64,000 bases of DNA, from IMG/VR virus record IMGVR_UViG_3300012036_000007, positions 570 through 64,569 of that record. One strand, written 5' to 3'. The DNA comes from a virus. Its lineage: Duplodnaviria; Caudoviricetes. Below, in pieces: positions 4,914-62,122 of this stretch. The notes beneath the pieces were generated by a model, which made no database searches, was not told where the DNA came from, and was given only the letters and a program-made list of their open reading frames with translations. The number at the start of each line of letters is the position of its first letter. The first letter of the stretch is position 1. Made by a program: the position numbers and the translations under genes.

Positions 4914-4940
4914 GCAATCGCTGGCCAACCACTGCGTCTA
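4914..4940 (+). promoter_or_regulatory. ECF-type promoter GCAATC-N14-GCGTCTA (recombination operon)
   Basis: GCAATC gctggccaaccact GCGTCTA; one of 10 copies. Confidence 0.75.
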
Positions 4941-4975
4941 CTGAGTTGAGTGAAAGATTCAACCGAGGTGAGACG

Positions 4976-5371
4976 ATGCAAGTTAAAGCGATTTGGATAA
5001 TAAAAACACTGGTTTTCGAGACCGAAGATCACAAGCATATTGTGACGGTTTCAAACTGGCCAACGAAGCTGGATGTCACAGACATGCTCCATGCTTTGTG
5101 CGGCAAACCAGAAGACGGTTGCTACACATGGAACGAAGGCATTAACGAGCTTAAGCGAATCATCAGTTTGGTTTGCATGCGTAGCGATCAAATCAATCAA
5201 GAGATTCGTCGCATCGAGCCGTTCACCGATGGTGCCAGCATGCACCTTGCATTGTCGATGGCAACCTTGTTCTTGAGCAAGACGCTCGAAGTTCCAATGA
5301 AGGAAGCGAGAATGCTTGTCTCGCTCAACACAACGGACGTGGATAAGTTCACCGGAGCTATCCATGAATAA
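4976..5371 (+). CDS. Hypothetical protein
   Basis: ORF with GAGGTG RBS before ATG 4976; coupled to the next gene. Confidence 0.6.
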   Translation: MQVKAIWIIKTLVFETEDHKHIVTVSNWPTKLDVTDMLHALCGKPEDGCYTWNEGINELKRIISLVCMRSDQINQEIRRIEPFTDGASMHLALSMATLFLSKTLEVPMKEARMLVSLNTTDVDKFTGAIHE

Positions 5372-6251
5372 TGATCAACTGCTGAGATTTGCCACCCGTG
5401 AAGAGTGGTTGGCTAATCGCAAGAATTCGATTGGCTCTTCCGATGCGGGTGCCATTCTTGGGCACGGATATGCCACTCAAAGCCGGTACACGTTGTGGCT
5501 GGACAAGACGGGGCAATCAGAGGTCGAATTCGATGACCAGACCCAAGAGCGGTTTGCGAAGGGTCACGCTGCTGAGAAATACATCGCGGACCTAGCGCGG
5601 ATTTCGCACGGATGGGAAGTGCAGTTCGACCCCGATCACTCGATGCGGGTTTCGTCGGACATGCCGTATGTGACGGCATCGCTAGACATGTTTGCGATCG
5701 TCGATGGCAAGCCCTGCGTTTTGGAGGCCAAGAATCTTTCGAGCTGGGTGGCAAAGAAGGAGTGGGACGAAGCGGCTGGCAAAGCCCCGTTGAAGTTCTC
5801 GCTTCAGGTGCAGCATCAGTTGCTTGTCACTGGCTGGGATCAGGGTTATTTGGTCGGACTCAACGGCATGGATTTGCTAACCATTCCGGTTCCGAGACAT
5901 GAGCAGATCATTAGCCAGATGAGTGTGGCTTACCGAAAGTTCTGGCATTCGGTTGAGAACCGCATTGAGCCGGAGCTAGATGGCAGCAACGCCACTTATT
6001 CGGCATTGTGTGAAAACAATCGTCCGGTAGAGCGGCAGGTAAAGCACGTAGAAGACACGGAGTCGGAGTTGGTGGAATCCTATTTCTTCGCCGAAGAGAT
6101 GTTGTGTGAGGCGGAGAAAACCCGCAACAAACGACGCAATGAGGTGCTCGGATTGTTTGGTGACAACGAGAGCTTGGTGATGCCCGATGGTAGTTGGGTG
6201 TCGGTTAAAAACGGGCGGGGGAAGACTCGCCGAATCAAGAAAGGTAGATAG
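5364..6251 (+). CDS. YqaJ/lambda-exonuclease-like recombinase nuclease
   Basis: EEWLANRKNSIGSSDAGAILG, KGHAAE, ASLD, LEAK, LQVQHQLLVTG. Confidence 0.9.
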   Translation: MNNDQLLRFATREEWLANRKNSIGSSDAGAILGHGYATQSRYTLWLDKTGQSEVEFDDQTQERFAKGHAAEKYIADLARISHGWEVQFDPDHSMRVSSDMPYVTASLDMFAIVDGKPCVLEAKNLSSWVAKKEWDEAAGKAPLKFSLQVQHQLLVTGWDQGYLVGLNGMDLLTIPVPRHEQIISQMSVAYRKFWHSVENRIEPELDGSNATYSALCENNRPVERQVKHVEDTESELVESYFFAEEMLCEAEKTRNKRRNEVLGLFGDNESLVMPDGSWVSVKNGRGKTRRIKKGR

Positions 6252-6253
6252 AG

Positions 6254-9645: not shown

Positions 9646-9869
9646 GTAACCAAGATAAATTCTGGATGGTGTTAGGTCGTGGCGTGCCAACACATCGGCA
9701 TTCGACTGAAGAGGTTGCTCGGAATGAGGCTGGTCGGCTGGCCAAGCTGAACCCAGATCAGGATTTCTATGTCCTCGAGGCTATCGCAGTAGCCAGAAGC
9801 AGCACGGTGTCTTGGTCGAATCTTCGCAGTCCAGCATCGGTCCACATTGAAGATGATAAGCCGTTTTGA
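9642..9869 (+). CDS. Conserved phage hypothetical protein
   Basis: FWMV..PTHRH.T.E.A..EA.RLA..NP...FYVLEA; ATGA coupling. Confidence 0.7.
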   Translation: MSNQDKFWMVLGRGVPTHRHSTEEVARNEAGRLAKLNPDQDFYVLEAIAVARSSTVSWSNLRSPASVHIEDDKPF

Positions 9870-10372
9870 TCACCGCGACAGAAATTGAACGGGCTTTGAT
9901 TCGGTATCTGAGTCGGCCCGGTCGCTTGATCTGCACGAACACCTACATGCTTGATTCACCGTGGGAGAGTGATTTACTCACGGTGAGCAAGCCGATGTAT
10001 TGGCAGGAATTCGAGATCAAGCTGACGGTCGCAGACTACAAGGCAGACTTCCGCAAAGCCTACAAATGGGGGGCAAAGATCAAGAAGCATGTTGCTTACG
10101 CCCGGTCTCAAGAGATCCGAATCAATCGCAGGATATTGTGTCCCAAGCCGCGCCAGTTCTGGTTTGTGTTCCCCGAAGGCATGGTGCCGGTATCGGAAGT
10201 GCCTCAGCATTGCGGGGTCCTGCTGTACGGTAAAAGTGATTGGCGTGAAGAGAATTGCATCAAGTTGGCCAGGAAAGCCAGAGTGCTTAAGAACCCAACG
10301 AAGTTGACCGAAAGGCATATTTTCAACCTTGCTTTGAAGTGTGCGACGAAGACGCATTCGATAAACGGGTAG
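9866..10372 (+). CDS. MmcB-like PD-(D/E)xK nuclease-fold protein
   Basis: WESDLL...EFEIKLTVADYKADFRK...FWFVFP...CGVL. Confidence 0.65.
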   Translation: MITATEIERALIRYLSRPGRLICTNTYMLDSPWESDLLTVSKPMYWQEFEIKLTVADYKADFRKAYKWGAKIKKHVAYARSQEIRINRRILCPKPRQFWFVFPEGMVPVSEVPQHCGVLLYGKSDWREENCIKLARKARVLKNPTKLTERHIFNLALKCATKTHSING

Positions 10373-10380
10373 GGCGTCGA
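10354..10380 (+). promoter_or_regulatory. ECF-type promoter variant GCATTC-N14-GCGTCGA (membrane/lysis cluster)
   Basis: GCATTC gataaacgggtagg GCGTCGA, 76 nt before ATG 10457. Confidence 0.55.
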
Positions 10381-10456: not shown

Positions 10457-10978
10457 ATGCCCTGGTATCAAGACCGGCGGTTTCACATTGCCATCGGTAT
10501 CACCACCGTATTCCTCCTGTTGCGATTTCTGTTCACCGGCAATCTGTCCGTGGTCGGTGATTACTACTTCGTGCCGGAAGACCCCGAAAAGCCGAAGTCG
10601 ATCGATATTGTCCCGGTCCTTTTCCAGATGGCGATATCGTTCTTTGCGATCGTTGGTTCATCGGTTGTCCTGTGGGTGACCAAGATCTGGGCACGTATTG
10701 CGGACCTCGTGGACGGATATACCGAGACTCGCACAGCGACCAAAGCCGAGCCCGGCAGCAAGGAAGAACTCAAAGATGCGCTGTTCGAGGCCGCTAGTGA
10801 GGGTCGCAGAGATGAGCTAGACCGATTGGTCGATTTCACGCGAAAACCCAAGGCCGTAACGCTACTGACTCGCGAGATCCGAGAGGGGCGCCTTGATGAG
10901 GCGGAGAAGTTGTTTGCCGAGATCAAGCGACTCGAAGGCCAGACCAGTCCTACCAAGCGTAAGGAGGCCGCGAAATGA
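10457..10978 (+). CDS. Two-TM membrane protein
   Basis: Hydrophobic segments FHIAIGITTVFLLLRFLF and VLFQMAISFFAIVGSSVVLWV. Confidence 0.75.
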   Translation: MPWYQDRRFHIAIGITTVFLLLRFLFTGNLSVVGDYYFVPEDPEKPKSIDIVPVLFQMAISFFAIVGSSVVLWVTKIWARIADLVDGYTETRTATKAEPGSKEELKDALFEAASEGRRDELDRLVDFTRKPKAVTLLTREIREGRLDEAEKLFAEIKRLEGQTSPTKRKEAAK

Positions 10979-11466
10979 GCGACGACTACCTATACGAAAG
11001 CGGAAGCAAACAGAGCAGCGGTGGCGGGTTTAGCAATCTGATCCTGATCGTCGTCATCGCAGCGGTTTGCTACTTCGCGTGGAATCGATCCGATTGGGGT
11101 GGCGGTGATAAGCAAGACCGCGACAAGCAAGAGGAACGTGAGGACCAAAAAAAAGACGACGAATCCGATGGGCGTGAGGTCGATGCGGATTGGTCTGGCT
11201 ACAGCTTCTATTCGCTGGTGGAGACCAAACCGCTAGAGCCCAAGACGCTGTCGATGCTCGATGCGTTGAAGGTCTATGCGAAAGCCAATGACATGGCCGG
11301 GGCCGTCCACTACGACGATGACCTGCCCGAAGTCAAAGACAAGATCGATTGGGCCAAGAGCAAGGGAGTCAGTCCGCCGTTCACGATCCTGTACGAGGAC
11401 CTACAGACGCCTAAGAGTGTGATTTCATTCCCGAAAACGATAGCTGATTTGGAGGGCTTGAAATGA
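10975..11466 (+). CDS. Single-TM anchored protein
   Basis: LILIVVIAAVCYFAW followed by a charged linker and a globular domain. Confidence 0.75.
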   Translation: MSDDYLYESGSKQSSGGGFSNLILIVVIAAVCYFAWNRSDWGGGDKQDRDKQEEREDQKKDDESDGREVDADWSGYSFYSLVETKPLEPKTLSMLDALKVYAKANDMAGAVHYDDDLPEVKDKIDWAKSKGVSPPFTILYEDLQTPKSVISFPKTIADLEGLK

Positions 11467-12371
11467 GCGAACTAGCCACGTTTAAGAACCCAGAAGGTTT
11501 TGAATTCTCGACCGGTCTGATAATGCCGGATGACAATCAGAAGGCGTTAATGAACGCGGTTGAAGAGTATCCCGACTCGATGATGCTCGACGATCCCGAC
11601 ATCGAAAAGCTGCTGAAGGACTACGATTACAAACAATCGCGGCGTGATTTAGCACCTTACATGATCAATCAGTCATCGGTGGGAAAGTGCAACACGAGCG
11701 CCGTTGTCGGTGCAGTGGATCAACTTCGACTGCAACAGGGCCTACCCCACATTCCGCTTGCCGATGACCAGCTTTATATGCGGGTCAACGGTGGCCGCGA
11801 TGCTGGCAGTGCACTGATCGAAGGTTATCGCGAGTTGCTTGAGCGAGGCGTAGCACCTCGCTTTGTGCAAGTCGGTGGAATGACCAAGGCATTTCCGCAC
11901 TTCAAGATCCGTCAACGAGATATTCCATCCGACATATGGCAAGCAGCCATGTCTGAGATGAGCCGCTTCCGTGGCTTTGAATGGTATCGAGCACCTCTTG
12001 ATCGGGCCGGTTATGCCAGAGCACTGGCATCTGCCCTAGCCCGTCGTCAGCCGGTCGTCTTCGCATGGCATGTCGGCAACAACGGGATGCGACTGAGAAA
12101 CGGCTATGCACAGATTAGCCGTGGACCGGGCAACCATGCCAACGTCTTCCACTCAGCGAAGTACGTGGGTGGCCAAGACATCGTACACCCAGACGATCGC
12201 AATTCATGGGGACCGTCCAAGGACGTGATCTATGGCCCAACGAACAGCGGTTGGGGCGAAGCCGGCTACGCGTTATTCACGATGGATGATGCATTCGCAT
12301 GTGCCGGAAACCACTACACGTACATCGGGACTTCGGTACGTCCTGATCCCACTAACGACTTCGGTGTGTAA
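11463..12371 (+). CDS. Papain-like (C1) cysteine peptidase
   Basis: NQSSVGKCNTSA (Gln/Cys), GNHAN (His), RNSWG (Asn), WGEAGY. Confidence 0.8.
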   Translation: MSELATFKNPEGFEFSTGLIMPDDNQKALMNAVEEYPDSMMLDDPDIEKLLKDYDYKQSRRDLAPYMINQSSVGKCNTSAVVGAVDQLRLQQGLPHIPLADDQLYMRVNGGRDAGSALIEGYRELLERGVAPRFVQVGGMTKAFPHFKIRQRDIPSDIWQAAMSEMSRFRGFEWYRAPLDRAGYARALASALARRQPVVFAWHVGNNGMRLRNGYAQISRGPGNHANVFHSAKYVGGQDIVHPDDRNSWGPSKDVIYGPTNSGWGEAGYALFTMDDAFACAGNHYTYIGTSVRPDPTNDFGV

Positions 12372-12407
12372 CCCGTAGTCAAATTCGAACCCTGAGGAAA
12401 AGTGATT

Positions 12408-13043
12408 ATGAAACCACAGTTGATCTTATCGGTGTTTGTTGCCCTAATCGGGTACGCCATCATGCCATCGGATAAGTCCGATGAGCCCAAGCAATCGGTG
12501 GCTGAAGTCACCGAGATTGAGAACCCGTTTGAAGCCGTAGACCTACCGATGTTCGTCTCACAGCTGGACGGCTACGGCACTCCCGCGAGCGAGCCGACAA
12601 GCAGTTACGACGTTTGCGATTGTGACTGTGACGCCAACACGGAAGCGATCAAGAGGCTTGCATCGCGGGTGACCAAGTTGGAAGCCGAGCACAGCGACTT
12701 GAAAGCCAAATTCACGCCCGCGATGGCGAGCTACAACAGCACTGGAAGCGGAAGCAGTGGGTCGACCTATTCGAGCTACCAGACTGCGAGTGTCGGCAAT
12801 GGCAGCACCGGTGGGGCGGTCCAGTCCTATGCCCCGGTAGTTAGCCGTGAGATCCGAACGCCCGTTAGAAGTGCTGTCCAGACCATCGTGCAACCGCAAT
12901 ACCAAGTCCAGTACCAGCCGACTGTATCTAGTGGCACGTGCTACATCGATCCAGTCAGTGGCCAGCAAATATGCCCGACGGCTAACACAAGCAATTCGTA
13001 TCAGCCATTGCGGCGCGGACTGCTCGGCTGGCGTAGGCGGTAG
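12408..13043 (+). CDS. Exported protein with coiled coil and low-complexity tail
   Basis: N-terminal hydrophobic helix, EAIKRLASRVTKLEAE coiled coil, C-terminal RRGLLGWRRR. Confidence 0.7.
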   Translation: MKPQLILSVFVALIGYAIMPSDKSDEPKQSVAEVTEIENPFEAVDLPMFVSQLDGYGTPASEPTSSYDVCDCDCDANTEAIKRLASRVTKLEAEHSDLKAKFTPAMASYNSTGSGSSGSTYSSYQTASVGNGSTGGAVQSYAPVVSREIRTPVRSAVQTIVQPQYQVQYQPTVSSGTCYIDPVSGQQICPTANTSNSYQPLRRGLLGWRRR

Positions 13044-13046
13044 GCC

Positions 13047-13289
13047 ATGGCTAATTGGGTCCGTGGAGTATTGATAGCGGTAGCGGTCATTTTGGTCGCT
13101 ACCGTTATCCTCCGATTCCAAAGCTGTTCTATCTTGCCGTTCGATGGACGGTTCCGAGAGTCCATAAGCGATTTTTGGAACGACAGGAAAGAACGCAAAC
13201 AGGACCGCAATGAAGAGCGGTCAGACGACCAGAAAGCGGACGATGAGAACGATCAAGACAACCAACGAAGATTTTGGCGAAGGCGATAG
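13047..13289 (+). CDS. Small membrane-anchored protein
   Basis: GVLIAVAVILVATVIL followed by a charged tail. Confidence 0.65.
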   Translation: MANWVRGVLIAVAVILVATVILRFQSCSILPFDGRFRESISDFWNDRKERKQDRNEERSDDQKADDENDQDNQRRFWRRR

Positions 13290-13292
13290 AAC

Positions 13293-13652
13293 GTGCAGCT
13301 CGATTTGATAGTCATATTCATACATGCCATCGCGGTCACAACGGGCCTCTGGACCATGTATAGACATGGCGAGTTCTTCGAGGACTTCCGCATGTCGGAC
13401 GTACTGCACGGGCGTTGGGACGCGTGGCTCTACATCATCAACTCGTTGTCGACTGCATTATGTGTTGTCGAGATCGCAATCAGGATCGGGTGGTGGGCGA
13501 CCATCAATTGGAAGTTTTCAGCCGACTTTTGGATGTACGCCTTTCTTTCGTTCCATGCCTTCTCCGGAATCCTCGCGACGGTCATCCATGTCGTCACCAA
13601 CAAGTTGCTCAGAAAGGGTGAGTTCTGCGCATTGTGTAAAAGGAATTTTTAG
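13293..13652 (+). CDS. Three-TM membrane protein
   Basis: Three hydrophobic helices; C-terminal CxxC. Confidence 0.65.
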   Translation: MQLDLIVIFIHAIAVTTGLWTMYRHGEFFEDFRMSDVLHGRWDAWLYIINSLSTALCVVEIAIRIGWWATINWKFSADFWMYAFLSFHAFSGILATVIHVVTNKLLRKGEFCALCKRNF

Positions 13653-13662
13653 AGTGCCTGGA

Positions 13663-14552: not shown

Positions 14553-14661
14553 CCCACCCATGATCCAAACCATCTACTACATCCTCCGCCACCCGATCCA
14601 CGCGTATCGCGGTTCGGTACCAGATACACAATTCAACGTCACATTTTTTGAGTAATGGCTA

Positions 14662-19179: not shown

Positions 19180-19206
19180 GCAATCATTGTTTCCCAAGTG
19201 CGTCTA
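19180..19206 (+). promoter_or_regulatory. ECF-type promoter (MTase/helicase operon)
   Basis: GCAATC attgtttcccaagt GCGTCTA. Confidence 0.75.
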
Positions 19207-29402: not shown

Positions 29403-29429
29403 GCAATCGGTGGCAGGGCAGTGCGTCTA
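29403..29429 (+). promoter_or_regulatory. ECF-type promoter (terL-portal intergenic transcript)
   Basis: GCAATC ggtggcagggcagt GCGTCTA. Confidence 0.75.
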
Positions 29430-32193: not shown

Positions 32194-32220
32194 GCAATCA
32201 CCGATTCGATTGGGCGTCCA
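32194..32220 (+). promoter_or_regulatory. ECF-type promoter variant upstream of sigma paralog 2
   Basis: GCAATC accgattcgattgg GCGTCCA. Confidence 0.65.
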
Positions 32221-33021: not shown

Positions 33022-33048
33022 GCAGTCGATGGCTTTCGCGTGCGTCTA
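33022..33048 (+). promoter_or_regulatory. ECF-type promoter (probably a leaderless WYL mRNA)
   Basis: GCAGTC gatggctttcgcgt GCGTCTA, then 7 nt to ATG 33056. Confidence 0.75.
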
Positions 33049-37823: not shown

Positions 37824-37850
37824 GCAATCGCCTTCCCGCCCTTGCGTCTA
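37824..37850 (+). promoter_or_regulatory. ECF-type promoter (ATPase operon)
   Basis: GCAATC gccttcccgccctt GCGTCTA. Confidence 0.75.
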
Positions 37851-39561: not shown

Positions 39562-39591
39562 AAAGCCAGCCTATTCAGGTTGGCTTTTTTT
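39562..39591 (+). terminator. Rho-independent terminator
   Basis: AAAGCCAGCCT-attc-AGGTTGGCTTTTTTT. Confidence 0.85.
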
Positions 39592-39603: not shown

Positions 39604-39630
39604 GCAGTCGAAGGCCATGCAATGCGTCTA
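39604..39630 (+). promoter_or_regulatory. ECF-type promoter (dnaN)
   Basis: GCAGTC gaaggccatgcaat GCGTCTA, directly after the terminator. Confidence 0.75.
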
Positions 39631-51052: not shown

Positions 51053-51079
51053 GCAATCCCGGCCCTGCCCGTGCGTCTA
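51053..51079 (+). promoter_or_regulatory. ECF-type promoter (probably a leaderless mRNA)
   Basis: GCAATC ccggccctgcccgt GCGTCTA, then 7 nt to ATG 51087. Confidence 0.75.
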
Positions 51080-52468: not shown

Positions 52469-52740
52469 GTCAAATCACTAGATGCGTCTAGGGATTTGAC
52501 AGCGAGATCAAAACGCCCGCGTAGGGGCATCAACCCTGCGACGGGATCGAAAGAGCCGGCATCGCACATTTGATGACTTCCGCACCATACCAACTACTCG
52601 CTAGCTCGGGCGTAGGCATGGTGCTACAGCAGTATTTATGGCGGCGGCGGGCACTCATCGACTTCGCAAGCTTCAGATCGATCAGTGCCCGCCGCCTCGG
52701 CTTTGATAGCCCCCGATATTGATCTTCGGAATCGGGCCAT
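52469..52740. ncRNA. Candidate multi-hairpin structured RNA
   Basis: Consecutive stems 52469-52500, 52516-52545, 52582-52624 and a perfect 13-bp stem 52643-52655/52684-52696. Confidence 0.45.
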
Positions 52741-52753
52741 CAATCATCTTCCC

Positions 52754-53419
52754 ATGGACGTGCCAGACCGCGAAGAACTCGAAAACCAAATTGCTGCCAT
52801 CATCATTCTATTGTGGATGGACTTCTCGCAGACTCGTTATCAATCGCGACAAGCAGCATGGCAGCGGTTCAACACGCTGTTCAATGAACGGGCCAAGCCC
52901 GTGGTCTCTCGCATCTACGGCAATGCCAGGGTCGATCTAGGTCAGTCTTTCGGGGTGAACTACCAGACACCGATCAACTCCAGTGCTTCCGGTGTCGGAA
53001 CAGTCGATGCAACTGCACCGCCGATCTCGCTACGCGGGTTAGGTGCTCGAATGACTGAACTTGCTAGACGGGTCTTTGACTCGTTTTGGGCCCGCATCGA
53101 ACCGTGGATTCGCGGTGAGGAAGACAAGCCCGAATTCAAGGACTACGAAGCGGATCGGACTGCAACAGATGTGGTCACCCGATCTCACACCGAAGGGGAG
53201 ATGGACGGAGCTGGCGATGTGAATGACCAAACGGGCAAGCAAATCGTAGCGGTGTGGTTCACAGAACCCGGTGCTTGCCCAGTCTGTAGCCCACTGCATG
53301 GGACCGTCCAATTGTGGCGCAGACGGTTTCCGGAGGGGCCACCCGCACCGCACCCGAACTGTAGATGCTATCTCGAATGGCGAGAAATGAGCGCCGGTGA
53401 GATCGGAACAGCCGGTTAG
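52754..53419 (+). CDS. Minor head protein (MuF/SPP1 gp7-like)
   Basis: W....ACPVCSPLHG...PPAPHPNCRC; start uncertain (GTG 52685 lies inside an RNA stem). Confidence 0.8.
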   Translation: MDVPDREELENQIAAIIILLWMDFSQTRYQSRQAAWQRFNTLFNERAKPVVSRIYGNARVDLGQSFGVNYQTPINSSASGVGTVDATAPPISLRGLGARMTELARRVFDSFWARIEPWIRGEEDKPEFKDYEADRTATDVVTRSHTEGEMDGAGDVNDQTGKQIVAVWFTEPGACPVCSPLHGTVQLWRRRFPEGPPAPHPNCRCYLEWREMSAGEIGTAG

Positions 53420-53511
53420 TTGGTTGGTCGCCTTGTGTTGAGGTTGGTAATCGCTCGTCCGACACTTGCCGCCATTAAGTTCAACCAACTTTCTGGAGGC
53501 AAATCGTCCAC

Positions 53512-53697
53512 ATGGGTAACCGAACGGGTCGCAAGACCATCGCATCGACCGAAACCAAAGCTGCGGTGCTGAAGGTCCACAAAGGTAATCCCGATCTGAC
53601 GGCACCTCAAATCGCCGAGAAGTTCATCGGGGTCAGTGCTCGCCAAGTTCGATACTGGATCGGACAAGCTAAATCCAAGGAGCGAGCCAATGCCTAA
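53512..53697 (+). CDS. Small HTH protein
   Basis: LTAPQIAEKFIGVSARQVRYW; GGAGG RBS. Confidence 0.65.
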   Translation: MGNRTGRKTIASTETKAAVLKVHKGNPDLTAPQIAEKFIGVSARQVRYWIGQAKSKERANA

Positions 53698-55123
53698 TTC
53701 TACGGGCATTATCGTGGATGACTTTGGCACCGATCCGATGATCGATGATGCCAACATGTCCATCCGATTCCGAATCTGCACCTCGGACTTGGACCGCGAA
53801 GGCGACATCATCGAACCGTCTGGGGTCGATTGGTCGGACTACGCCAACAATCCAACGGTCCTGTTCAATCACGGCTTTGGCGATATCAGCCTGCCTGTGG
53901 GTAAGAGCATCGACAAAGACGGTGTGCTGCATCTGTCATACGACCCGGAAGAGGACGCGATCTACTCGCGGACATTCTTCGACGAGCGATTCGAGTTGAG
54001 TCGTCAGACTTTCTTCCTCGTCAAAGAGGGATTCATGCGGGCCGCTTCGATCCACGTCATGCCGTTGATGGGAATGATGCGAGAGTTGCAGCATGGTGGA
54101 AGTCACGTCTATGGCTCATCGATGCTTGAGTATTCGATATGCACGGTGGGCGCGAACCAGAACGCTTTTGCCAAGACAAATCCAAAAGGAGAGCGATTTT
54201 CGGAGTTGATGGCGTTGCAGTTGGAAAGCGCAGACCGAATTTTGGATACCCACAAGCTTGGAGGTGATCCGATCAACGCATCGCTGGCCAAGTGCTTGCA
54301 GGCATTCCGCCCCAAGTCCAAGGCAACTAGCCCTGGGGTCACTTACGTTGATGAGGATGAGATGGATAAGAAAACATTGAGCAAGGCGGAGGTCGACAAA
54401 CTCGAGACTCTAGCTTTGGCAAAAGCCTTGGGTGATCGCGTTCAATACGATGACTCAACTCAAAAGCTTTTGACCGCACGGGCCAAGTCTCTTGATGGTC
54501 TTCCGAAGATGGAAGATGACGACGAGACGATGACGAAGATGAGCGACGACGAGATCGAACCCAAGGAAATGGGTAGCGAGAACGTCGATGAACCGCAGGC
54601 GGAGCCGACTTCGGATCTTCCGCCCGGTGCTCAATATCTTGCAGCTCTCCATGCCGACGCTGCCGACTTCCTCAGCAAGTTGGAAGCTGTCAGCAAGTAC
54701 ACCGAAGAGCCAAAGGTCAAGGAATTGGCTGGCGAATTGGCTTCGACCGTCCAAGAGACGGTTGCGGCTATTGAGGGTGGTTCGGCCACGATCTACGCCG
54801 ATGCACCTTCGCTTGTCGGTGAGGCTGTCGAAGAATCTGCCGAGATGATGAAGTCATGGCTGGCAGATAAAGGAGCAACCGGCAGCTACCAGTTGACCGG
54901 CCTTGCACGTCGACTCGACATCGTTCTTGCCAATCCGTCTTCGCCCAAGGCAAAGACGATGGTCGAAAACACTCGACGCGATTTGTTGGCCCTTGAAATG
55001 GCGGCCCGCAACTACAAACCCAAGTCGGTCACCAACCCTGAGACTGAGGCCAAGATTGCTTCACTCACTAAGATGGTCACCCAACTTCAAGAAGCAATTC
55101 AGACGCAACCTGCCGCGCTTTAA
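53690..55123 (+). CDS. Prohead protease with scaffold-like C-terminal region
   Basis: DREGDII, NPTVLFNH...PVGK, AASI, LEYSICTVGAN. Confidence 0.88.
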   Translation: MPNSTGIIVDDFGTDPMIDDANMSIRFRICTSDLDREGDIIEPSGVDWSDYANNPTVLFNHGFGDISLPVGKSIDKDGVLHLSYDPEEDAIYSRTFFDERFELSRQTFFLVKEGFMRAASIHVMPLMGMMRELQHGGSHVYGSSMLEYSICTVGANQNAFAKTNPKGERFSELMALQLESADRILDTHKLGGDPINASLAKCLQAFRPKSKATSPGVTYVDEDEMDKKTLSKAEVDKLETLALAKALGDRVQYDDSTQKLLTARAKSLDGLPKMEDDDETMTKMSDDEIEPKEMGSENVDEPQAEPTSDLPPGAQYLAALHADAADFLSKLEAVSKYTEEPKVKELAGELASTVQETVAAIEGGSATIYADAPSLVGEAVEESAEMMKSWLADKGATGSYQLTGLARRLDIVLANPSSPKAKTMVENTRRDLLALEMAARNYKPKSVTNPETEAKIASLTKMVTQLQEAIQTQPAAL

Positions 55124-55181
55124 AGCGGGGACGGAATTTCCCTTTTCGTAATCCGGCTAACAGAGTTTAGGAGTAAACCAC

Positions 55182-56447
55182 ATGAGCGCGGAACTAAAAG
55201 ACCTTGAAAAGAAGGTCGAAGCATTAACGAATTCGTTATCGAAGAATCATAACTCGATCGATTCGTTCCGATTCAACGGTGAAAACCAAGCGACGTCGTT
55301 CTTTGAGGACACGCCCGCAAAGTCCGGCCCTTCGCGATACGGGACTCCGTTTCGTCGTAGTAGCCGCCCGATGCTGCCTAAGAAGTACGAAGCAGGTCAA
55401 CTTGGCGATTACGGATCGTTTCTCCGCACGTTGATGCGGGAAGGCGATAAGTTCAAGGCCTCGCACACGAAAGCATTTGAATCGCTTTCGCTGGCCAAGG
55501 CTGGTTCGATCAACACGACTCAGTTTGATGAGGGCGGTGCTCTTGTCCTGCCTGAGTATGCCGACGCCATTGAGGCCATGATCTACCAAGAGGAGTCGCT
55601 TTGGGGTCGAACCCGAAGCAATACCGTTGGTGGGAACTCGATGAAGTTCACGATCCTTCGCAATGTCGATCAGGCCGATGGCGTCCGACATGGTGGAGCA
55701 CTCGGGTACTGGACGGGTGAAGGCGATCCGATTCAGACTTCGAATCTGAAGTTTGATGAACTCGACGTCTCACTCCAAAAGCTTGGCGTGGCCGTGTTCT
55801 TGACCGAAGAGCAGATCGATGACAGCGGATATGACATCGTTGGTTTCACCAATGAAGTCGTGCAAGCTGAATTCGATTACCAGCTCGATCGGGCATTGAT
55901 TCGCGGTGATGCGGTCAAGAAACCAATGGGGCTGCTCAAAAGTTCGCACCGTGTCACGATCGATAAAGAAAGCGGTCAGTCCGCGGCATTGGTGGCTGAA
56001 AACGTCATCAACATGCTTTCCCGTCGTTGTTCGTCCTCACCGGGTGACAACTGGATCATCCTGTACAACCAGGATCTCGAGCCGTTCCTGACTTCGATGT
56101 TCTTGCCGACCGGGCCGAATTCGGGCGAGTTGGTTTACATGCCAGCCGGTGGATTGGCTGGCAACAAGTACGCCACACTCGGTGGCTATCCTTGCATGGC
56201 CAGCGAGCATTGCAGCACGGCTGGCAAAGAGGGTGACATCATTTTCTGGAACGCCAAGGATTACGTGTCGATCAACAAGGGTGGCATCAACACCTACGCT
56301 TCGCCACACGTCAAATTCCTGGAAGACATGAACTGCTTGAAGTTCACGTTCCGAGTCAATGGTCGTCCGATGTATGACGAGCCGATCAAGATGGAGCAAA
56401 GTGCCAAGCTTCGCTCATCGATCATCACTGTCGAAGACCGCATCTAG
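55182..56447 (+). CDS. Major capsid protein (HK97 fold)
   Basis: GGALVLPEY, WTGEG, KL.V...TEE.IDDS, ALIRGD...PMGLL, TLGGYP, FRVNGRP. Confidence 0.92.
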   Translation: MSAELKDLEKKVEALTNSLSKNHNSIDSFRFNGENQATSFFEDTPAKSGPSRYGTPFRRSSRPMLPKKYEAGQLGDYGSFLRTLMREGDKFKASHTKAFESLSLAKAGSINTTQFDEGGALVLPEYADAIEAMIYQEESLWGRTRSNTVGGNSMKFTILRNVDQADGVRHGGALGYWTGEGDPIQTSNLKFDELDVSLQKLGVAVFLTEEQIDDSGYDIVGFTNEVVQAEFDYQLDRALIRGDAVKKPMGLLKSSHRVTIDKESGQSAALVAENVINMLSRRCSSSPGDNWIILYNQDLEPFLTSMFLPTGPNSGELVYMPAGGLAGNKYATLGGYPCMASEHCSTAGKEGDIIFWNAKDYVSINKGGINTYASPHVKFLEDMNCLKFTFRVNGRPMYDEPIKMEQSAKLRSSIITVEDRI

Positions 56448-56495
56448 TCTCTAGGTGTTTACCAAAACGATTTTTAGTTACTGGAGATTTTAGAA

Positions 56496-57020
56496 ATGGG
56501 TGCAAGTGATAATGGCTCGATTGCCCAGCTGTCCGACTTTGTGGTCGGAATTGGAGCAGGCGCGGGAGCAACGCGAACTTCTCAGGAGTTCAATTTCATT
56601 GGCAATGAGGGTCTAAACGCCATCGTTGTCACAGACGCTAGTGGTGCAGCTGCTACCGCGACCACGATCACTCTTGAGCAATGCCAAGACGCTGCAGGTA
56701 CAGGTGCGAAGGCTTTGCAGATCAAGAGTGTTGAGAGCAAGATCGCTGCTGACGGCGCGTTCAGTCCAGCGACTGATATTTGGGCGGATGCTACGGCGAT
56801 AAGCCGTGAAACACCGGCGAATGACTTTGTGATCGCCGATACGGATCAAGCTGCGGTGGTGAATATCTTTGTCCTGCCTCAGGACTTGGATGTCGCAAAC
56901 GGTTTCTCTCACGTTCGGGTCAAGTTGGTATCTGCTTCAACAGCGGTTGTATCGCAAGTGTTCTTCGTGCCGACTGGGCGTCAATATAAGGGCGTCAAAG
57001 CCAATAGTTCTTTGGCGTAA
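56496..57020 (+). CDS. Putative capsid decoration protein
   Basis: Beta-rich protein directly after the MCP; LDVANGFSHVR motif. Confidence 0.55.
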   Translation: MGASDNGSIAQLSDFVVGIGAGAGATRTSQEFNFIGNEGLNAIVVTDASGAAATATTITLEQCQDAAGTGAKALQIKSVESKIAADGAFSPATDIWADATAISRETPANDFVIADTDQAAVVNIFVLPQDLDVANGFSHVRVKLVSASTAVVSQVFFVPTGRQYKGVKANSSLA

Positions 57021-57065
57021 TCAATACGATCCTCGAGAGTTTTTTGCCTTTCGCTCGATGATCTA

Positions 57066-57100
57066 GAAGCCGCCTGGGATGATTCTCAGGCGGCTTTTTT
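57066..57100 (+). terminator. Rho-independent terminator after the capsid operon
   Basis: AAGCCGCCTGGG-atgatt-CTCAGGCGGCTTTTTT. Confidence 0.88.
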
Positions 57101-57203
57101 CATGCGCCAAGCGTTGGGGTTGGCGTTGGCTAATCGCAGTATGTGGGGGCTCGAAAGGCAGTTAAACCTAAGCCAGTCATTCACAAAACAGAAGGTCCGT
57201 TGT

Positions 57204-57725
57204 ATGTCGTCCGAAAAAGTTCGTAGTGTTGCAGCTGAGTTGATCGGACTGCCTGCATTCCGTGTCCTCTCGCGAAGCCTCAAATTGAATCCGAAGTGGG
57301 TTGCTACACAGCTCCACATGGCGGCTTCCATTCTCTGTCGTGAGACCGAAGGGGTTGATTCTCGCGAATTCAAATCGATCTTGAGTGCTTACGGTGGGTT
57401 GCTTGAACAACAGCGGGTCTGGAACGAAGAATACTGCGTCTACCAGATCAAGCTCGCCAAGGGTTTGGTCGCTGCGTTTGCAGATATCGAAAATGAGGCC
57501 GATGAGTCGGCAGTAGTTGCGGAGGAATCGGCCCCGGTCGCAACCGAGGCACTCGACTTGCCTGAGAGCGTCAAGGGATTGTTGATCGAAGCCGGGTTGG
57601 TTGATTCCGACAAGATCGAGGACAAGATCGAAGCCAAGTCGCTTGGCAAGGAAATCAGTGGCATCGGTCCTTCGACTGTGACCAAGATCCAAGAAGCGAT
57701 CGCTAAGGCCAAGGCAAGCGAGTAA
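57204..57725 (+). CDS. Hypothetical protein with C-terminal helix-hairpin-helix
   Basis: LIEAGL...EISGIGPSTVTKI. Confidence 0.6.
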   Translation: MSSEKVRSVAAELIGLPAFRVLSRSLKLNPKWVATQLHMAASILCRETEGVDSREFKSILSAYGGLLEQQRVWNEEYCVYQIKLAKGLVAAFADIENEADESAVVAEESAPVATEALDLPESVKGLLIEAGLVDSDKIEDKIEAKSLGKEISGIGPSTVTKIQEAIAKAKASE

Positions 57726-57728
57726 ACC

Positions 57729-58541
57729 GTGTCCGGACTGATACCCGTAGCAGTCCATTGTGCGTTGGTCCCCGATGTCACTTTGGGCGAAGAAACGAGA
57801 CGATTCTTGCTGTCTGCCACGCAGGCGATAGTGGAGGGCGTCACCGGTCTAGTATTCGGTTCCGAAGTCCGGAGCGTCACAGTTGATGGTTCGATCTACC
57901 GGATCACCTACGACGGTGGTCTTTACCAGCCGGGCGATTCGATTGCATTGATTGGTGGTGGCCTGAATGCTGAGGTGTTTGAGATCACTGCGGTGGGAAT
58001 GGATGATCTAGACCATTGGCTAGAGATTAGTTCTGACGATGCATTGGCACCGGCACGACTATTCCCGGTAGTTGTTCAGCAAGGGACGCCCAATGGACGG
58101 TTCTTTGATTGCCGTCCATGTCCTGTCTTTCGGGTGATTACCGTTCAGGCCAAGACTCCCGATCAGTTATGGAGTGAAAGCCAGACGATTGAAACGACCG
58201 AATGGGAGCTGACACGCAAGCGGAATCTATCGGTGGGTGTGGAAGTCCAATTGCATGCGATCCCAAAGGCTATGGAGGGCGGTCGGCATCTAATCAAGCG
58301 TCGGTTGTATGAACCGCTCGATTGCTTCCAGGTCACCTACGTAGCGGGCATCTATTCCGTACCACAGGACTTGATGACAGCCGCTATTGAGATCGCATCC
58401 ATGGTCAGAGATGCAAACGAATCCGGTGGGGTCTACGCATCAGAGAGCCTTGATTACTACAGCTACACCCGAATTGGTAAGGATCAACTATCGATGGTCC
58501 CCCATTCTGCGATGGCTGTCTTACGGAGGTACAAGCTGTGA
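57729..58541 (+). CDS. Head-tail adaptor/connector
   Basis: VTYVAG...VPQDL..A.IEI...SESL..YSY. Confidence 0.75.
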   Translation: MSGLIPVAVHCALVPDVTLGEETRRFLLSATQAIVEGVTGLVFGSEVRSVTVDGSIYRITYDGGLYQPGDSIALIGGGLNAEVFEITAVGMDDLDHWLEISSDDALAPARLFPVVVQQGTPNGRFFDCRPCPVFRVITVQAKTPDQLWSESQTIETTEWELTRKRNLSVGVEVQLHAIPKAMEGGRHLIKRRLYEPLDCFQVTYVAGIYSVPQDLMTAAIEIASMVRDANESGGVYASESLDYYSYTRIGKDQLSMVPHSAMAVLRRYKL

Positions 58542-58900
58542 GCATCAATCGCAGGATGCTAGCCAGAAAAGCTGGCATGATTCCAGGAAGGATCGAAGTT
58601 GTGGTCTACGCCTATGCAGGCCGTGATTTGCACACGTCAGGCGTTCCGGTGAAATGTGAGCGTAGACCATCGAATAAGAAGCAGGCACGTGGAGAGGCTG
58701 ACGCAGATGCCTCAGATCATGAGTACGTATTCTTTACCGCTGAGCTAGAGCGAGTTGGGGTTGAGATCAAGAACGAGGCAGTTATCTACGATCGCGAGAT
58801 AAGCCCCGCCTATCACGTCGTGGAATCTACCCGATGTGAGATGCTCAACTCTCGTATCAGAGCCTATTGCAATACCACGGTGGCCCCAGATGTTGCTTGA
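58538..58900 (+). CDS. Putative head-closure protein
   Basis: Position and size (120 aa) after the adaptor. Confidence 0.5.
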   Translation: MSINRRMLARKAGMIPGRIEVVVYAYAGRDLHTSGVPVKCERRPSNKKQARGEADADASDHEYVFFTAELERVGVEIKNEAVIYDREISPAYHVVESTRCEMLNSRIRAYCNTTVAPDVA

Positions 58901-59348
58901 GGACTTCGCTAAGGAACTACTAGAGACGGCAGAACGGGTCGAGTCATCGGACTATCGTGAGCCGCTGAAAATCGCTGGCAAGACATTCGGTGACGAGGTA
59001 GGCAAGAACTTCCTGCGAGAGGAAAGTGAGAGCGGTAGTGCATGGCCGGAGCATTCACCGGTGACGGTTGCGATCTACGGCCCCCACCCGTTGTTGAGAC
59101 TCAGCTATGTGATGATGACTGCCGCAACGGACTACGGGAATCCAGGGGCTAGTATGGTCTTGGAGAACAACCAAATCACGATAGGAATCGACGGGAACGA
59201 GATTCCATACGCTGCGACCCAAAACGATGGCGGTGGAAATATCCCCGCGCGTGAGTTCTTCTACCTGAATGAAGACTCGCAGGGGTTGCTAGGGGCTGAG
59301 TTGGAAATCAATTGCATATCGGTGATCGAAGAAGAGGTGATGCCCTAA
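58890..59348 (+). CDS. Virion morphogenesis / tail completion protein (Mu gpG-like)
   Basis: NF..E...SG.AW...SP.T...PYAA.QN.G..NIPAREF. Confidence 0.8.
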   Translation: MLLEDFAKELLETAERVESSDYREPLKIAGKTFGDEVGKNFLREESESGSAWPEHSPVTVAIYGPHPLLRLSYVMMTAATDYGNPGASMVLENNQITIGIDGNEIPYAATQNDGGGNIPAREFFYLNEDSQGLLGAELEINCISVIEEEVMP

Positions 59349-60073
59349 TGGCTGTAATAAGTGTGTCAGACAATGGTGATGGAACAGGGGCGGTCGTATC
59401 GCTAGCTGCTAACACTGGAGTGGCCAAGATCTACGCGAGTGCGTTTCTAGGTTCGAATGCCAGACGTATGGCGGTGGAGATTGGCGAGATCGATGGCAAT
59501 GGCACGCTAGACTTTGCTGGTGGGTTAGGTCCTCATCTCATTGCTGGGGTGAACGATGCGGGGCTAATCGCGCCCATTCATTGCCGGATCACAGACGTAG
59601 GGGAAGACATTCATTGGCAGTGCCTCAACGGGGTCAGGGAGTTCGTGCTATCGCTTGATCTACCCGGCGTGATGAGTGATCCGGATTCGCATTACGTGGT
59701 GAAGCTGCCATACAACCCCGATGAAGAGTTGGCGATCGACAATGGCGACAGGGAATATGGGGTCTTTTACTTCCCGAAGCCCGAGCAATACACGACCGCG
59801 AACAACATGGAGGAGTCAGCTAGTTACTTCGTCCAGGTGCTTTTGATCCGCAAGGCAGGCAGGAAAAACAGCGATGGTTTGGAGCAATTATTGAGCATCC
59901 GTCAGAAGATGGCTCTGAGTTTTGCCCACTGTCCGCTACCAGATGTCGAGGCCGTGCATTCTGTTTACATCCAACCGGGATCAATCATCCTGCCCGATAG
60001 GTGGCTCAAGTCCTATGACTGTTCAAGCTTGGTCTTCCGGTGTGTATCAGAACAACCCAGCGGCATACTGTAG
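59348..60073 (+). CDS. Putative tail terminator
   Basis: Position immediately before the tail tube gene; TAATG coupling. Confidence 0.45.
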   Translation: MAVISVSDNGDGTGAVVSLAANTGVAKIYASAFLGSNARRMAVEIGEIDGNGTLDFAGGLGPHLIAGVNDAGLIAPIHCRITDVGEDIHWQCLNGVREFVLSLDLPGVMSDPDSHYVVKLPYNPDEELAIDNGDREYGVFYFPKPEQYTTANNMEESASYFVQVLLIRKAGRKNSDGLEQLLSIRQKMALSFAHCPLPDVEAVHSVYIQPGSIILPDRWLKSYDCSSLVFRCVSEQPSGIL

Positions 60074-60084
60074 GTCTAAGATAG

Positions 60085-61020
60085 ATGGCAAACGAAAACT
60101 GCAACGCTAATATCCCACGCGGCCACAAGATTGGGTTCGCACTCTACAACACTGCCAAGGCTTCGGCATTCACGAAGCTCTTTTCAGTCAACAGTTTCGG
60201 ACTGAAGGGCATCACCAACAAAGTCACCGATGACGGCATCAAAGGGACGATCTTTGATGTGAAGGGTGAGGACGTTGTTTCAACCAAGGCCGTCAGCGGG
60301 GCGGTGACCATGAATCCGCGTCCTGAGGATCTCGAGGCGGTATGCCATGCGATCTTTGGCGGGCCGGGATTCACTGCGGGGATCCTGAACCCGGGCGAGA
60401 TGTGCGGTTATCACCATTGGGGCGAGCTAGACCCCAAGCTCGATGTGATCTACCGCTATGACAATTGCGTCACATCCTCTGCGACATGGTCGGCTTCCGA
60501 TAGCTCACCGTTGTTGCTGCTCAATTGGAACGTCGAAGGCCAGACTGAGACGCTGACCACAACCGGTGGTGTTGCTGCCTTCCCCAGTGCGATTGTTGCA
60601 TCATCGGAACAGCCATTTGTGTTCCGGCAAGCGACATTGACGTTCGGGGGGACTGTCACCCGAATGAAATCCTTCAACTACACGGTGAATCACAATCTGG
60701 ATCTATCAGGCTTCTACAACTCGTTGACCCGAGAGGAGATGCCTAGCGGTGGTCAGACCCATGAGCTGAGTGTCGAGCTGCCGTGGGACGTTGCTGCTGA
60801 GGTTGCCAAGATTGGATCGATTCAGACCGTCGCGGCTACGGTTGAATTCGTGGCAGGCACAAGTGAATTCAATTTAACGTTTCCAAATCTGGAATTCGTG
60901 ATCGACAAGCCAGAGTTGTCGGGTCGGTCACGAATCAACAACACCTATTCGTGTATGGCCAAGATGGATCCAGATAACGCCATTCCTTACCCAGTTCAGA
61001 TCGAGGTCGTCAATGCGTAA
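60085..61020 (+). CDS. Major tail tube protein
   Basis: VSGAVTMNPRPE, PFVFRQATL, SFNYTVNHNL; precedes the frameshifting chaperone. Confidence 0.7.
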   Translation: MANENCNANIPRGHKIGFALYNTAKASAFTKLFSVNSFGLKGITNKVTDDGIKGTIFDVKGEDVVSTKAVSGAVTMNPRPEDLEAVCHAIFGGPGFTAGILNPGEMCGYHHWGELDPKLDVIYRYDNCVTSSATWSASDSSPLLLLNWNVEGQTETLTTTGGVAAFPSAIVASSEQPFVFRQATLTFGGTVTRMKSFNYTVNHNLDLSGFYNSLTREEMPSGGQTHELSVELPWDVAAEVAKIGSIQTVAATVEFVAGTSEFNLTFPNLEFVIDKPELSGRSRINNTYSCMAKMDPDNAIPYPVQIEVVNA

Positions 61021-61267
61021 GATCGAAGCCCCAAACGGTGATGCAGCCAATCAACTCCAAGCAGTTGCGGTGGTCAAGGATGCGATGGAGATCCTGAAGC
61101 TTCAAGGCCGTAACTCGCACGTTGAGTTTGAGAACAAAGACGGCGTTTTCTCGATGGTCGTCTTTACCTCGACTGAGTCTATCGAGGTAGATGGTTCGGT
61201 AAGTTCGAACCTGTTGAAAGCCTGTACGGTGAAACCCAAGGCTGAGAATAAAACCAAAGGTAAGTGA
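61013..61267 (+). CDS. Hypothetical protein
   Basis: Coupled ORF in the tail operon. Confidence 0.6.
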   Translation: MRKIEAPNGDAANQLQAVAVVKDAMEILKLQGRNSHVEFENKDGVFSMVVFTSTESIEVDGSVSSNLLKACTVKPKAENKTKGK

Positions 61268-61704
61268 TGACTGTAGAGACGCCAGTAGGCCATACAATCC
61301 CGAGTGACGATGATGGATACACCCTTGAACGGTATATCCCCGGTGAAGAGGGTCTATATCCCGGCATTGAAGTCAGCTTCCGGCCATTGCCACCACGACG
61401 GGTGGCGGAGTATCGGCGACGAACTAAAGACCACGATGAAGTTGAGATGCTTGAGTCTGCTTGTGCGGTTCTGGCCAAGCAGGTGGTGTCTTGGAATGCC
61501 AAAGACCACAAGGGTGGAAAGATGGCAGTCACCTATCAGAATGCGTTGATCCTTCACCAGAGGATTCAGCAAGCACTTTCGTTGATGGTCATATTCGGGA
61601 CCTACGCGGGAGTGGTGAATCCTAAGCGAGCTGATGATCGCGACGACGATGACGGGTTCTTCAACACACCGGTTGAATTCGTTGAGGACTCGCAAAAAAA
61701 CTAG
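61264..61704 (+). CDS. Tail assembly chaperone (gpG-like)
   Basis: VVSWN motif; ends CAA AAA AAC TAG slippery site. Confidence 0.7.
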   Translation: MMTVETPVGHTIPSDDDGYTLERYIPGEEGLYPGIEVSFRPLPPRRVAEYRRRTKDHDEVEMLESACAVLAKQVVSWNAKDHKGGKMAVTYQNALILHQRIQQALSLMVIFGTYAGVVNPKRADDRDDDDGFFNTPVEFVEDSQKN

Positions 61705-62105
61705 CCACGGCGTTGGAGCATCTTGCGGCCTATCCAACGCTTTCTCAGTTGACTTGTGCTGAGTGCCAGAAGCACGTTTACACGATCCCAGACGGTGAGC
61801 CTCAGACGTACGAGGTCGACGGTGAGAATCTACCGATCGTCCGTCAGGTTCCGCCTCCGTGTGATGATTGTCCGCGGAAGGGACCGGAGAACGAGCGGTT
61901 CTATCGACTGACAGAGCGGAACTATGAGGCGTGGCAGATGTACGACCGCATCCAGGCCACACGTGGGGCGTACAAGGTGCCGGAGCATCTAAGCAGCTGT
62001 CCGGTATGGGCCGACAACATGGCCATCATTAAGCGGGCTTTGCAAGCAGGGCAGGCTCTGGCGAAGTCCAACATGTACCGTCGGTCGAAAAACGCGCAAT
62101 CGTGA
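61695..62105 (+). CDS. -1 frameshift extension (gpGT-like), Cys-rich
   Basis: A AAA AAC shifts into AAA CTA GCC ACG GCG TTG, in frame with ORF 61713-62105. Confidence 0.7.
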   Translation, partial: KKLATALEHLAAYPTLSQLTCAECQKHVYTIPDGEPQTYEVDGENLPIVRQVPPPCDDCPRKGPENERFYRLTERNYEAWQMYDRIQATRGAYKVPEHLSSCPVWADNMAIIKRALQAGQALAKSNMYRRSKNAQS

Positions 62106-62122
62106 GCTTGCCTGTGCGTCTA
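62096..62122 (+). promoter_or_regulatory. ECF-type promoter (nucleotide-metabolism operon)
   Basis: GCAATC gtgagcttgcctgt GCGTCTA. Confidence 0.75.

Follow-up and report, generated by a model that had tools for sequence, protein, structure and literature searches.

We describe a candidate set of promoters in a 64,000-nucleotide stretch of virus DNA, here called the window, which comprises bases 570-64569 of the 64,569-bp record IMGVR_UViG_3300012036_000007 (G000). A two-box motif occurs ten times in the window, and we think it likely that these ten sites are promoters of the extracytoplasmic function (ECF) class, read most probably by the host's core RNA polymerase together with an ECF sigma factor that the phage itself encodes. 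That the sites are promoters is well supported by their statistics, their placement, their geometry, and a related genome. We infer which sigma factor reads them and when.

A two-box motif repeated ten times

The motif GCANTC-N14-GCGTCNA is found at positions 4914, 10354, 19180, 29403, 32194, 33022, 37824, 39604, 51053, and 62096, always on the + strand. A preliminary description of this DNA had listed these ten sites, with their invariant 14-nt spacer and six copies that read exactly GCAATC...GCGTCTA, and an exact re-count gives the same result. That description had put the number of matches expected by chance at 0.03, which is slightly low: in 100 dinucleotide-preserving shuffles, the motif matched 0.11 times on average and never more than twice. 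The conclusion that the motif is rare by chance stands. We also varied the spacer from 11 to 18 nt on both strands of the whole record and found 10 matches, all with a spacer of 14 on the + strand, besides one stray with a spacer of 13. The stray (57549) lies inside a gene and scores low, and it is compatible with chance over the 16 spacer-by-strand tests. A candidate from a weight matrix, at 26328, is also in-gene and low-scoring and was taken as chance.

The motif emerges as well from a count that presupposes no pattern. Among all words made of two 5-mers with a gap of 8-23 nt, GCGCA-N17-GCGTC ranked first with 8 copies, and the next-ranked words were all shifted versions of it; in five Markov-1 random genomes, the top two-box word had just 4-5 copies. 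This answers the worry that the motif had been defined post hoc. When each copy in turn was left out of the weight matrix, 9 of the 10 copies outscored all of the roughly 129,000 other positions on both strands. The remaining copy (10354) scored 9.0 bits, and two non-member positions score above it. The motif set consists of nine firm copies and one marginal copy.

The core consensus is GCGCAATC-N12-GTGCGTCTA, which can be read as GCAAT-N16-CGTCTA (or GCGCAAT-N16-CGTCTA), and the extended consensus is GCGCAATCG..G.C......GTGCGTCTA. We found no second motif class of like strength, as neither intergenic k-mer counts nor the genome-wide two-box count gave anything above the null. When IMG/VR was scanned with the motif in a 14-base form, each of the 80 stretches listed, of at least 105, had a single match, which is chance level. 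Contigs of four runs were compared with 29350-49349, and the variant strain seen there differs by about 1%. None of the 40 strain differences listed (there are 184 more) falls in the copies at 32194 and 33022, where too few changes are expected for this to be evidence.

The copies lie at the boundaries of gene blocks

Gaps between open reading frames (ORFs) make up 8.4% of the window, and nine of the ten copies fall inside such a gap or no more than 10 nt from one. All copies are oriented with the direction of the genes, nearly all of which are on the + strand. Five copies start 4-15 nt past the preceding stop codon and two overlap that stop, and from each copy there are 7-146 nt to the next plausible start codon. 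The earlier description placed the copies at operon boundaries, and all of them do sit at gene boundaries, with the copy at 10354 straddling a stop codon; its statement that one copy (39604) follows a terminator is borne out. The copies, and the genes that lie before and after them, are as follows.

452-4903, + strand: block before copy 1, without motif; the gene for sigma1, an ORF (1074-1388) of unknown function, a ParB-like gene, a DnaC-like loader, and the DnaB helicase (from family searches)
4914..4940, + strand: copy 1, GCAATC-N14-GCGTCTA; 10 nt past the DnaB stop; leave-one-out score 30.2, rank 1; heads the recombination block, with a YqaJ exonuclease (5316-6251) and its neighbours
10354..10380, + strand: copy 2 (marginal), GCATTC-N14-GCGTCGA; straddles the stop of ORF 9866-10372; 76 nt to the ATG at 10457; followed by eight unknown ORFs (10457-18836), one of them 1172 amino acids long
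19180..19206, + strand: copy 3; heads a block (19294-29398) with a methyltransferase, three helicase-like genes, an acetyltransferase, and the large terminase
29403..29429, + strand: copy 4; 4 nt past the terminase stop and 398 nt ahead of the portal gene (29827-32178)
32194..32220, + strand: copy 5 (weaker variant), GCAATC-N14-GCGTCCA; 15 nt past the portal stop; 146 nt to the start of the sigma2 gene (32367-32876); leave-one-out score 15.6, rank 1
33022..33048, + strand: copy 6, GCAGTC-N14-GCGTCTA; the ATG of a WYL-domain gene (33056-33322; WYL, 24.1 bits) lies 8 nt on; block continues through to a nuclease
37824..37850, + strand: copy 7; 45 nt to an ABC/SMC-like ATPase gene (37896-39326; phrog_1499)
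39562..39587, + strand: terminator-like hairpin, with an 11-bp stem and a run of T's; ends 16 nt before copy 8
39604..39630, + strand: copy 8, GCAGTC-N14-GCGTCTA; 37 nt to the start of DnaN (39668-40759), which is followed by an 818-amino-acid ORF, TnpB (on the - strand), a PglX-like methyltransferase of 1137 amino acids, and another methyltransferase
51053..51079, + strand: copy 9; the ATG of ORF 51087-51749 lies 8 nt on; heads the head-to-tail-tube block, with small genes, a head-morphogenesis gene, two capsid-family proteins, an adaptor, a neck protein, and the tail tube (52685-61020)
62096..62122, + strand: copy 10; overlaps the last 10 nt of ORF 61713-62105; leave-one-out score 32.3; followed by small genes and a kinase/ATPase-like gene (62152 to 63679 and beyond)

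The block at 452-4903 is the only one without the motif. The preliminary description had proposed a "middle" regulon that spares the structural genes, and this part of it fails: copy 4 heads the portal gene, the large terminase lies in the block of copy 3, and the head genes (at 52685, 53636, and 55182) lie in the block of copy 9.

The stretch of about 400 nt from copy 4 to the start of the portal gene (29430-29826) contains short, unconvincing ORFs and no Rfam match. It may be a long leader, or it may hold an unrecognised small gene or RNA. The leader of sigma2 has no significant fold when compared with shuffled sequences (z = -1.05), and searches for Rfam and tRNA matches found none.

The motif resembles ECF promoters

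Typical ECF promoters combine AAC at -35 with CGT at -10, and a CGTC box with a spacer of 16 +/- 1 nt is likewise described as typical (excerpt of PMC3426412). In Streptomyces coelicolor, the promoters of sigma-E have GCAAC and CGTCT(A/T) with 17 nt between them, and one form is GGCAAC, 17 nt, CGTCTA (excerpt of PMC6767563). By its sequence, the motif GCGCAAT-N16-CGTCTA is a near-canonical ECF promoter. All 10 copies contain CGTC, always with 16 nt between it and the -35 triplet, which is AAT in 7 copies, AGT in 2, ATT in 1, and AAC in none. So, of the usual signature (AAC at -35, CGT(C) at -10, 16-17 nt), the -10 box and the spacing are present and the -35 box matches only partly. The preliminary description had called the motif ECF-type because of its CGTC box and fixed spacer, and we agree, with the boxes 16 nt apart as in known ECF promoters.

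At two copies (33022 and 51053), an ATG lies exactly 8 nt past the motif. The ATG at 51087 is the first start codon of its ORF, and the ATG at 33056 is the start of the part of the protein that matches WYL. Transcripts from these two copies are probably leaderless. If transcription starts at the A of the ATG, then CGTC would be at about -13 to -10, and across the set we would expect transcription to start about 7-8 nt past the motif. The short distance also leaves no room for another promoter at these two sites.

Two ECF sigma factors are encoded in the window

As previously reported for this DNA, two genes (at 452 and 32367) encode ECF sigma factors, and both proteins score above the TIGR02937 cut-off of 42.9 bits.

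452-1066, + strand: sigma1, ECF-type, 204 amino acids, with an acidic C-terminal tail; first gene of the motif-free block; TIGR02937, 53.2 bits
32367-32876, + strand: sigma2, ECF-type, 169 amino acids, under copy 5; TIGR02937, 73.0 bits

Both contain the Sigma70_r2 and Sigma70_r4_2 domains and belong to the ECF (group 4) sigma factors. They are paralogues (31% identity, E = 1e-16), and sigma2 matches ECF sigma factors with solved structures (SigL, 6dv9; SigH/SigE, 6jcy). Region 4 (PF08281) is matched at 43.8 bits in sigma2 versus 21.6 bits in sigma1. Neither protein fits a named ECF subgroup, as the best models (TIGR02984 and TIGR02989) score far below their cut-offs. The ORF beside sigma1 (1074-1388) has no Pfam match, and the next gene after sigma2 is the WYL gene behind its own putative promoter. 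It had also been noted that a variant copy precedes sigma2; this is the copy at 32194, which ends in GCGTCCA and is indeed weaker.

The nearest relatives of sigma2 are no more than 34% identical to it (32-34%, by HMMER against 1.84 billion representative proteins). Among 5.8 billion proteins we found only a 99%-identical copy, and among viral contigs no relative; tblastn against 50,697 phage records gave one weak match, in an unannotated faecal phage.

A 20-nt stretch is identical between the two genes (566-585 and 32460-32479), inside a near-identical run of 34 nt that encodes part of region 2. In contigs from runs X4 and X5, there is a loose end at 32445, with letters of the sigma1 sequence just upstream of the shared 20-nt stretch. 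This could be a cross-join in the assembly or recombination between sigma1 and sigma2.

A related phage has a different motif at matching positions

Several of the best matches to sigma2 share a signature with sigma1, and when we scanned IMG/VR with that alignment we obtained one record, which we call G001. This record, of 100,207 bp and with direct terminal repeats, is classed as complete. By tblastn, G001 has homologues of 31 of the 57 proteins in the window, at 25-58% identity and largely in the same order; the block after copy 2 has none. Record G000 is classed as linear and has an estimated completeness of 58%, next to the 100 kb of G001, so the ten copies are a lower bound and further copies are expected. 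Scanning metagenomes with a terminase alignment returned the G001 contig again, plus terminases that are 26-35% identical and too distant for use.

The motif of the window has no exact match in G001, and matches with one mismatch number 2, versus 2 for a control read backwards. Instead, the top two-box word of G001 has 10 copies, versus 5-7 in random genomes, and its motif on the coding strand is CGCGACAY-N14-TCGGTC. A relaxed form, CGACAY-N14-[TCA]C[GA]GTC, occurs 12 times on the coding strand of G001, never on the other strand, and never in the genome of the window. Ten sites match GACCG-N16-TGTCG exactly, all of them intergenic, and 22 of the 22 best matches to a weight matrix for the G001 motif are on the coding strand. 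In both phages, there are 24 nt from the GCG that starts the -35 box to the GTC of the -10 box.

The sites are also in similar places. The distances from shared genes to the nearest upstream site, in the window and in G001, are:

Portal: 398 vs 469 nt
ATPase (37896): 46 vs 57 nt
Gene 51087: 8 vs 23 nt
Terminase: 8435 vs 8235 nt
Gene 7303: 2363 vs 2236 nt
Gene 8578: 3638 vs 3600 nt
Kinase-like gene (63155): 1033 vs 991 nt

Six copies (1, 3, 4, 7, 9, and 10) have positional counterparts in G001. The counterpart of copy 1 is a site 22 nt ahead of the YqaJ homologue, and those of the others are at 28992 (copy 3), 19031 (copy 4), 95894 (copy 7), 56020 (copy 9), and 3418 (copy 10). A seventh G001 site lies just after the portal region, as copy 5 does.

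The regulon had been described as private to the phage. The relative agrees with this, in that it has a different motif with the same geometry at matching positions; "private" as we use it means only that the motif sets of the two phages do not occur in each other's genomes.

G001 encodes three ECF sigma paralogues, two of them side by side where the early operon begins (48397-47221) and the third at about 8872-8300. One of them, sigA, is 30% identical to sigma1 and is in the same gene order. The early operon of G001 (the sigma1 orthologue, a DnaC-like gene, and DnaB) has no site, and none lies within 5 kb upstream. In a tree of sigma factors, sigma1 falls inside a clade of phage sigma factors with 97/97 support, along with sigA and P0006, and sigma2 falls outside of it. 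P0002, P0003, P0006, and P0007, which are from other contigs, belong to the same clade, so more phages of this lineage exist.

Ahead of sigma1 by 162 nt, at 262-290, there is a candidate early promoter of host type, TTGCTT-N17-TACACT, and TACACT is also present in an AT-rich stretch ahead of the early operon of G001 (about 48810-48830, coding strand). Across positions 1-60000 of the window, sites that match the sigma-70 consensus are rarer than in shuffled sequence (2, 7, and 5 seen versus 15.4, 12.7, and 12.1 expected). This deficit may be partly trivial because TTGACA and TATAAT contain stop codons.

Which sigma factor reads the promoters

We propose that a host sigma factor would transcribe the short, motif-free operon at the left end (sigma1 and the ParB-like, DnaC-like, and DnaB genes), and that sigma1 would then redirect the polymerase to the promoters that carry the motif. 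All of the remaining blocks are headed by such a promoter: recombination, helicases and terminase, portal, WYL, DnaN, and head-to-tail-tube. The weaker copy 5 would drive sigma2, either as reinforcement or as a further step. Sigma1 is probably the initiator of the regulon: as the sole sigma factor encoded outside of it, sigma1 would be able to start it. That its orthologue (sigA) stands in the same gene order in G001 also favours sigma1 as the reader. Both sigma factors may read the motif.

A variant of this proposal is that sigma2 is the reader and is autoregulated from 32194, while sigma1 reads something unrecognised. Only sigma2 is preceded by a copy, and ECF sigma factors generally autoregulate (excerpt of PMC3426412); phage 7-11 uses such a positive loop (excerpt of PMC8948821). 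The stronger match of sigma2 to region 4 (PF08281) also points this way. However, sigma2 would itself need prior transcription, and every promoter that we found upstream of it is of the same class. Also, it is sigma1 and not sigma2 that has a clear orthologue in the same order in G001, which has a motif regulon; sigma2 is outside the well-supported clade; and we found no second motif class for sigma1 to read. We regard sigma2 as the sole reader as possible and rather unlikely.

Alternatively, a host sigma factor, such as an ECF sigma factor of a planctomycete host, might read the promoters, with the phage sigma factors serving another purpose. The motif closely resembles the generic ECF consensus, the likely host group (see below) is rich in ECF sigma factors (excerpt of PMC7826278), and overlapping recognition among ECF sigma factors has been described (excerpt of PMC6767563). 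On the other hand, the phage has two ECF sigma factors of its own, one of them in the sole block without the motif. G001 combines diverged sigma factors with a different motif at the same positions, which fits the co-evolution of sigma factor and promoter, although two different hosts could account for it too. Furthermore, it would be unusual for a phage to depend on a stress-induced host sigma factor for nearly all of its genes. Overall, we consider a host reader improbable.

It is less plausible still that the sites are not promoters and instead bind a regulator (the WYL or ParB-like protein) or act as RNA elements: all copies are on the transcribed strand, which is compatible with a role at the RNA level, and eight have a short inverted repeat (CGCA...TGCG), but the best-conserved bases are asymmetric (AATC vs TCTA), the inverted repeat is not kept in the G001 motif, hairpins of the motif are no stabler than shuffled ones and match no Rfam family, two genes start 8 nt past the motif with no room for a separate promoter, and two boxes with a fixed spacer and CGTC are the layout that sigma factors recognise.

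Several points weigh against our proposal that a phage ECF sigma factor reads these promoters. The -35 box has AAT in place of the usual AAC. No anti-sigma gene was recognised beside either sigma gene, using Pfam (anti-sigma factors are diverse). There are two sigma paralogues and a single motif class, which leaves the role of sigma2 unexplained. A motif near the generic ECF consensus, in a phage whose host lead is the ECF-rich Planctomycetes, makes a host ECF reader possible. None of the three sigma genes in G001 has a site nearby, which means that autoregulation is not conserved. The motif of G001, too, was defined post hoc, and G001 is just one relative. The gene maps of the window and of G001 are crude maps of the longest ORFs. 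Finally, the sequencing runs that carry this DNA are lake-water metagenomes, and no RNA run was among them.

Comparison to known phage systems

The mechanism is of a known kind, represented by gp47 of phage 7-11, gp36 of phiEco32, and the sigma factors of SPO1, now in a phage lineage that has not been studied. A phage sigma factor with private promoters is a classic way to take over the host's transcription, and few cases have been worked out. The window has the layout of such systems, namely a phage sigma factor and a repeated promoter before the non-early genes, with early genes that lack it, and so does G001.

Salmonella phage 7-11 encodes the sigma factor SaPh711_gp47 and has eight late promoters with the consensus GTAAtg-(16)-aCTA (excerpt of PMC8948821). 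As in the window, the sigma factor belongs to the sigma-70 family and has region 4; the promoter has two boxes with a fixed spacer of about 16 nt and occurs 8-10 times, ahead of genes that are not early; transcription of the early genes falls to a host sigma factor; and one promoter lies ahead of a sigma gene. Just as G001 keeps the locations of the promoters and not their sequences, so do phiEco32 and 7-11 when compared to each other (excerpt of PMC8948821). Unlike in 7-11, we have two sigma paralogues (and three in G001), a canonical ECF consensus (CGTC), and a regulon that includes replication and recombination, all of it known from sequence alone; no sequence similarity to 7-11 was detected.

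In phiEco32, the sigma factor gp36 drives middle and late genes from a private consensus, much as we propose here. In contrast to our motif, the promoters read by gp36 consist of one element (tAATGTAtA), and gp36 itself has no region 4; phiEco32 further encodes gp79, a protein that acts as both helper and inhibitor (all from an excerpt of PMC8948821). We found no sign of descent from the phiEco32 lineage. Megablast of 29000-41000 (12 kb) against the 50,697 phage records gave no close DNA relative, the terminase is distant (the best match, from Rhizobium phages, is 31.5% identical), and sigma2 has the one weak match among phages that was mentioned above.

Bacillus phage SPO1 has a cascade of sigma factors, gp28 followed by gp33/34. 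Transcription switches from the host's sigma-A to phage sigma factors (excerpt of PMC13401047). The window likewise has more than one phage sigma factor and a predicted hand-over in time from a host sigma factor. However, the SPO1 sigma factors read distinct promoter classes, and here one class is visible.

Among bacterial systems, group ECF41 has the promoter TGTCACA-n16-CGTC (excerpts of PMC6767563 and PMC3426412). The S. coelicolor sigma-E and ECF41 systems share with ours CGTC at -10, a distance of 16-17 nt, two stringent boxes, and a copy before a sigma gene. Our system differs in having AAT rather than AAC and in its predicted regulon, which is a whole viral genome and not a stress response; also, no anti-sigma partner was recognised beside either of our sigma genes.

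A candidate planctomycete host

The best lead to the host comes from DnaN (39668-40759). All of the named organisms among its 120 best matches (38-42% identity) are Pirellulales/Planctomycetota, and its neighbours in a protein atlas agree. The top-ranking subfamily models for the sigma factors are also planctomycete ones, although below their cut-offs. DnaN thus points to a host among the Pirellulaceae, which is a lead and not proof. The TnpB gene was uninformative for this purpose, with only cyanobacterial matches at 30-37% identity. Planctomycetes are rich in ECF sigma factors, and the same large classification of ECF sigma factors states that those of phages were not captured (excerpts of PMC7826278).

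Taking these results together, we tentatively suggest, at somewhat less than an even chance, that this is an undescribed lineage of lake phages, probably on Pirellulaceae (Planctomycetota), with two to three ECF paralogues and nearly the whole genome under one private promoter class, which has been retuned between relatives (GCGCAATC...CGTCTA versus GCGACAYA...CGGTC) while the positions and the box spacing stayed fixed. If so, such phages would be a natural series of orthogonal pairs of sigma factor and promoter, and they would offer an initial look at the takeover of transcription by phages in planctomycetes.

Sigma genes are uncommon in phages: in a survey of 4,350 reference phage genomes, 86.6% lacked a sigma gene, and those with two or three made up under 2% (excerpt of PMC9429907). 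Here the promoter set, the candidate sigma factors, and a retuned relative can all be read from the sequence, and they would be a source of candidate parts for orthogonal expression. We found no study of transcription in planctomycete phages among the 10 literature matches listed. If the planctomycete host is confirmed, then these data would tell us something about gene regulation in a group whose phages are, in our judgement, very little known.

Other features of the genome

Almost none of the large genes that G001 has at about 56-70 kb are matched in the window, and tail and other genes are probably missing from record G000.

The portal protein (783 amino acids) has extra C-terminal parts, and its residues 477-734 match phage families that are HAD/polynucleotide-kinase-like and RNA-ligase-like. 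It aligns over its whole length with its homologue from G001.

In the capsid region, directly after gene 56496-57020, a strong GC-rich hairpin is followed by six T's (57069-57100). A consensus scan had missed it. It is likely to be a partial terminator within the late block.

The protein of 1137 amino acids (45220-48633) has a weak match to the PglX-type adenine methyltransferase of BREX systems (33.7 bits, far below the cut-off) and also matches phrog_25988. It may be an anti-restriction or self-protection methylase.

The TnpB RNA-guided nuclease gene is at 43729-45066 on the - strand (NF040570, 227 bits). The gap of 474 nt downstream of it (43255-43728) could hold a guide RNA, and no Rfam family matches there. 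In run X4, a contig of the variant strain (depth 28.8) joins 43724 to 45061 and lacks the TnpB element, so the insertion is polymorphic.

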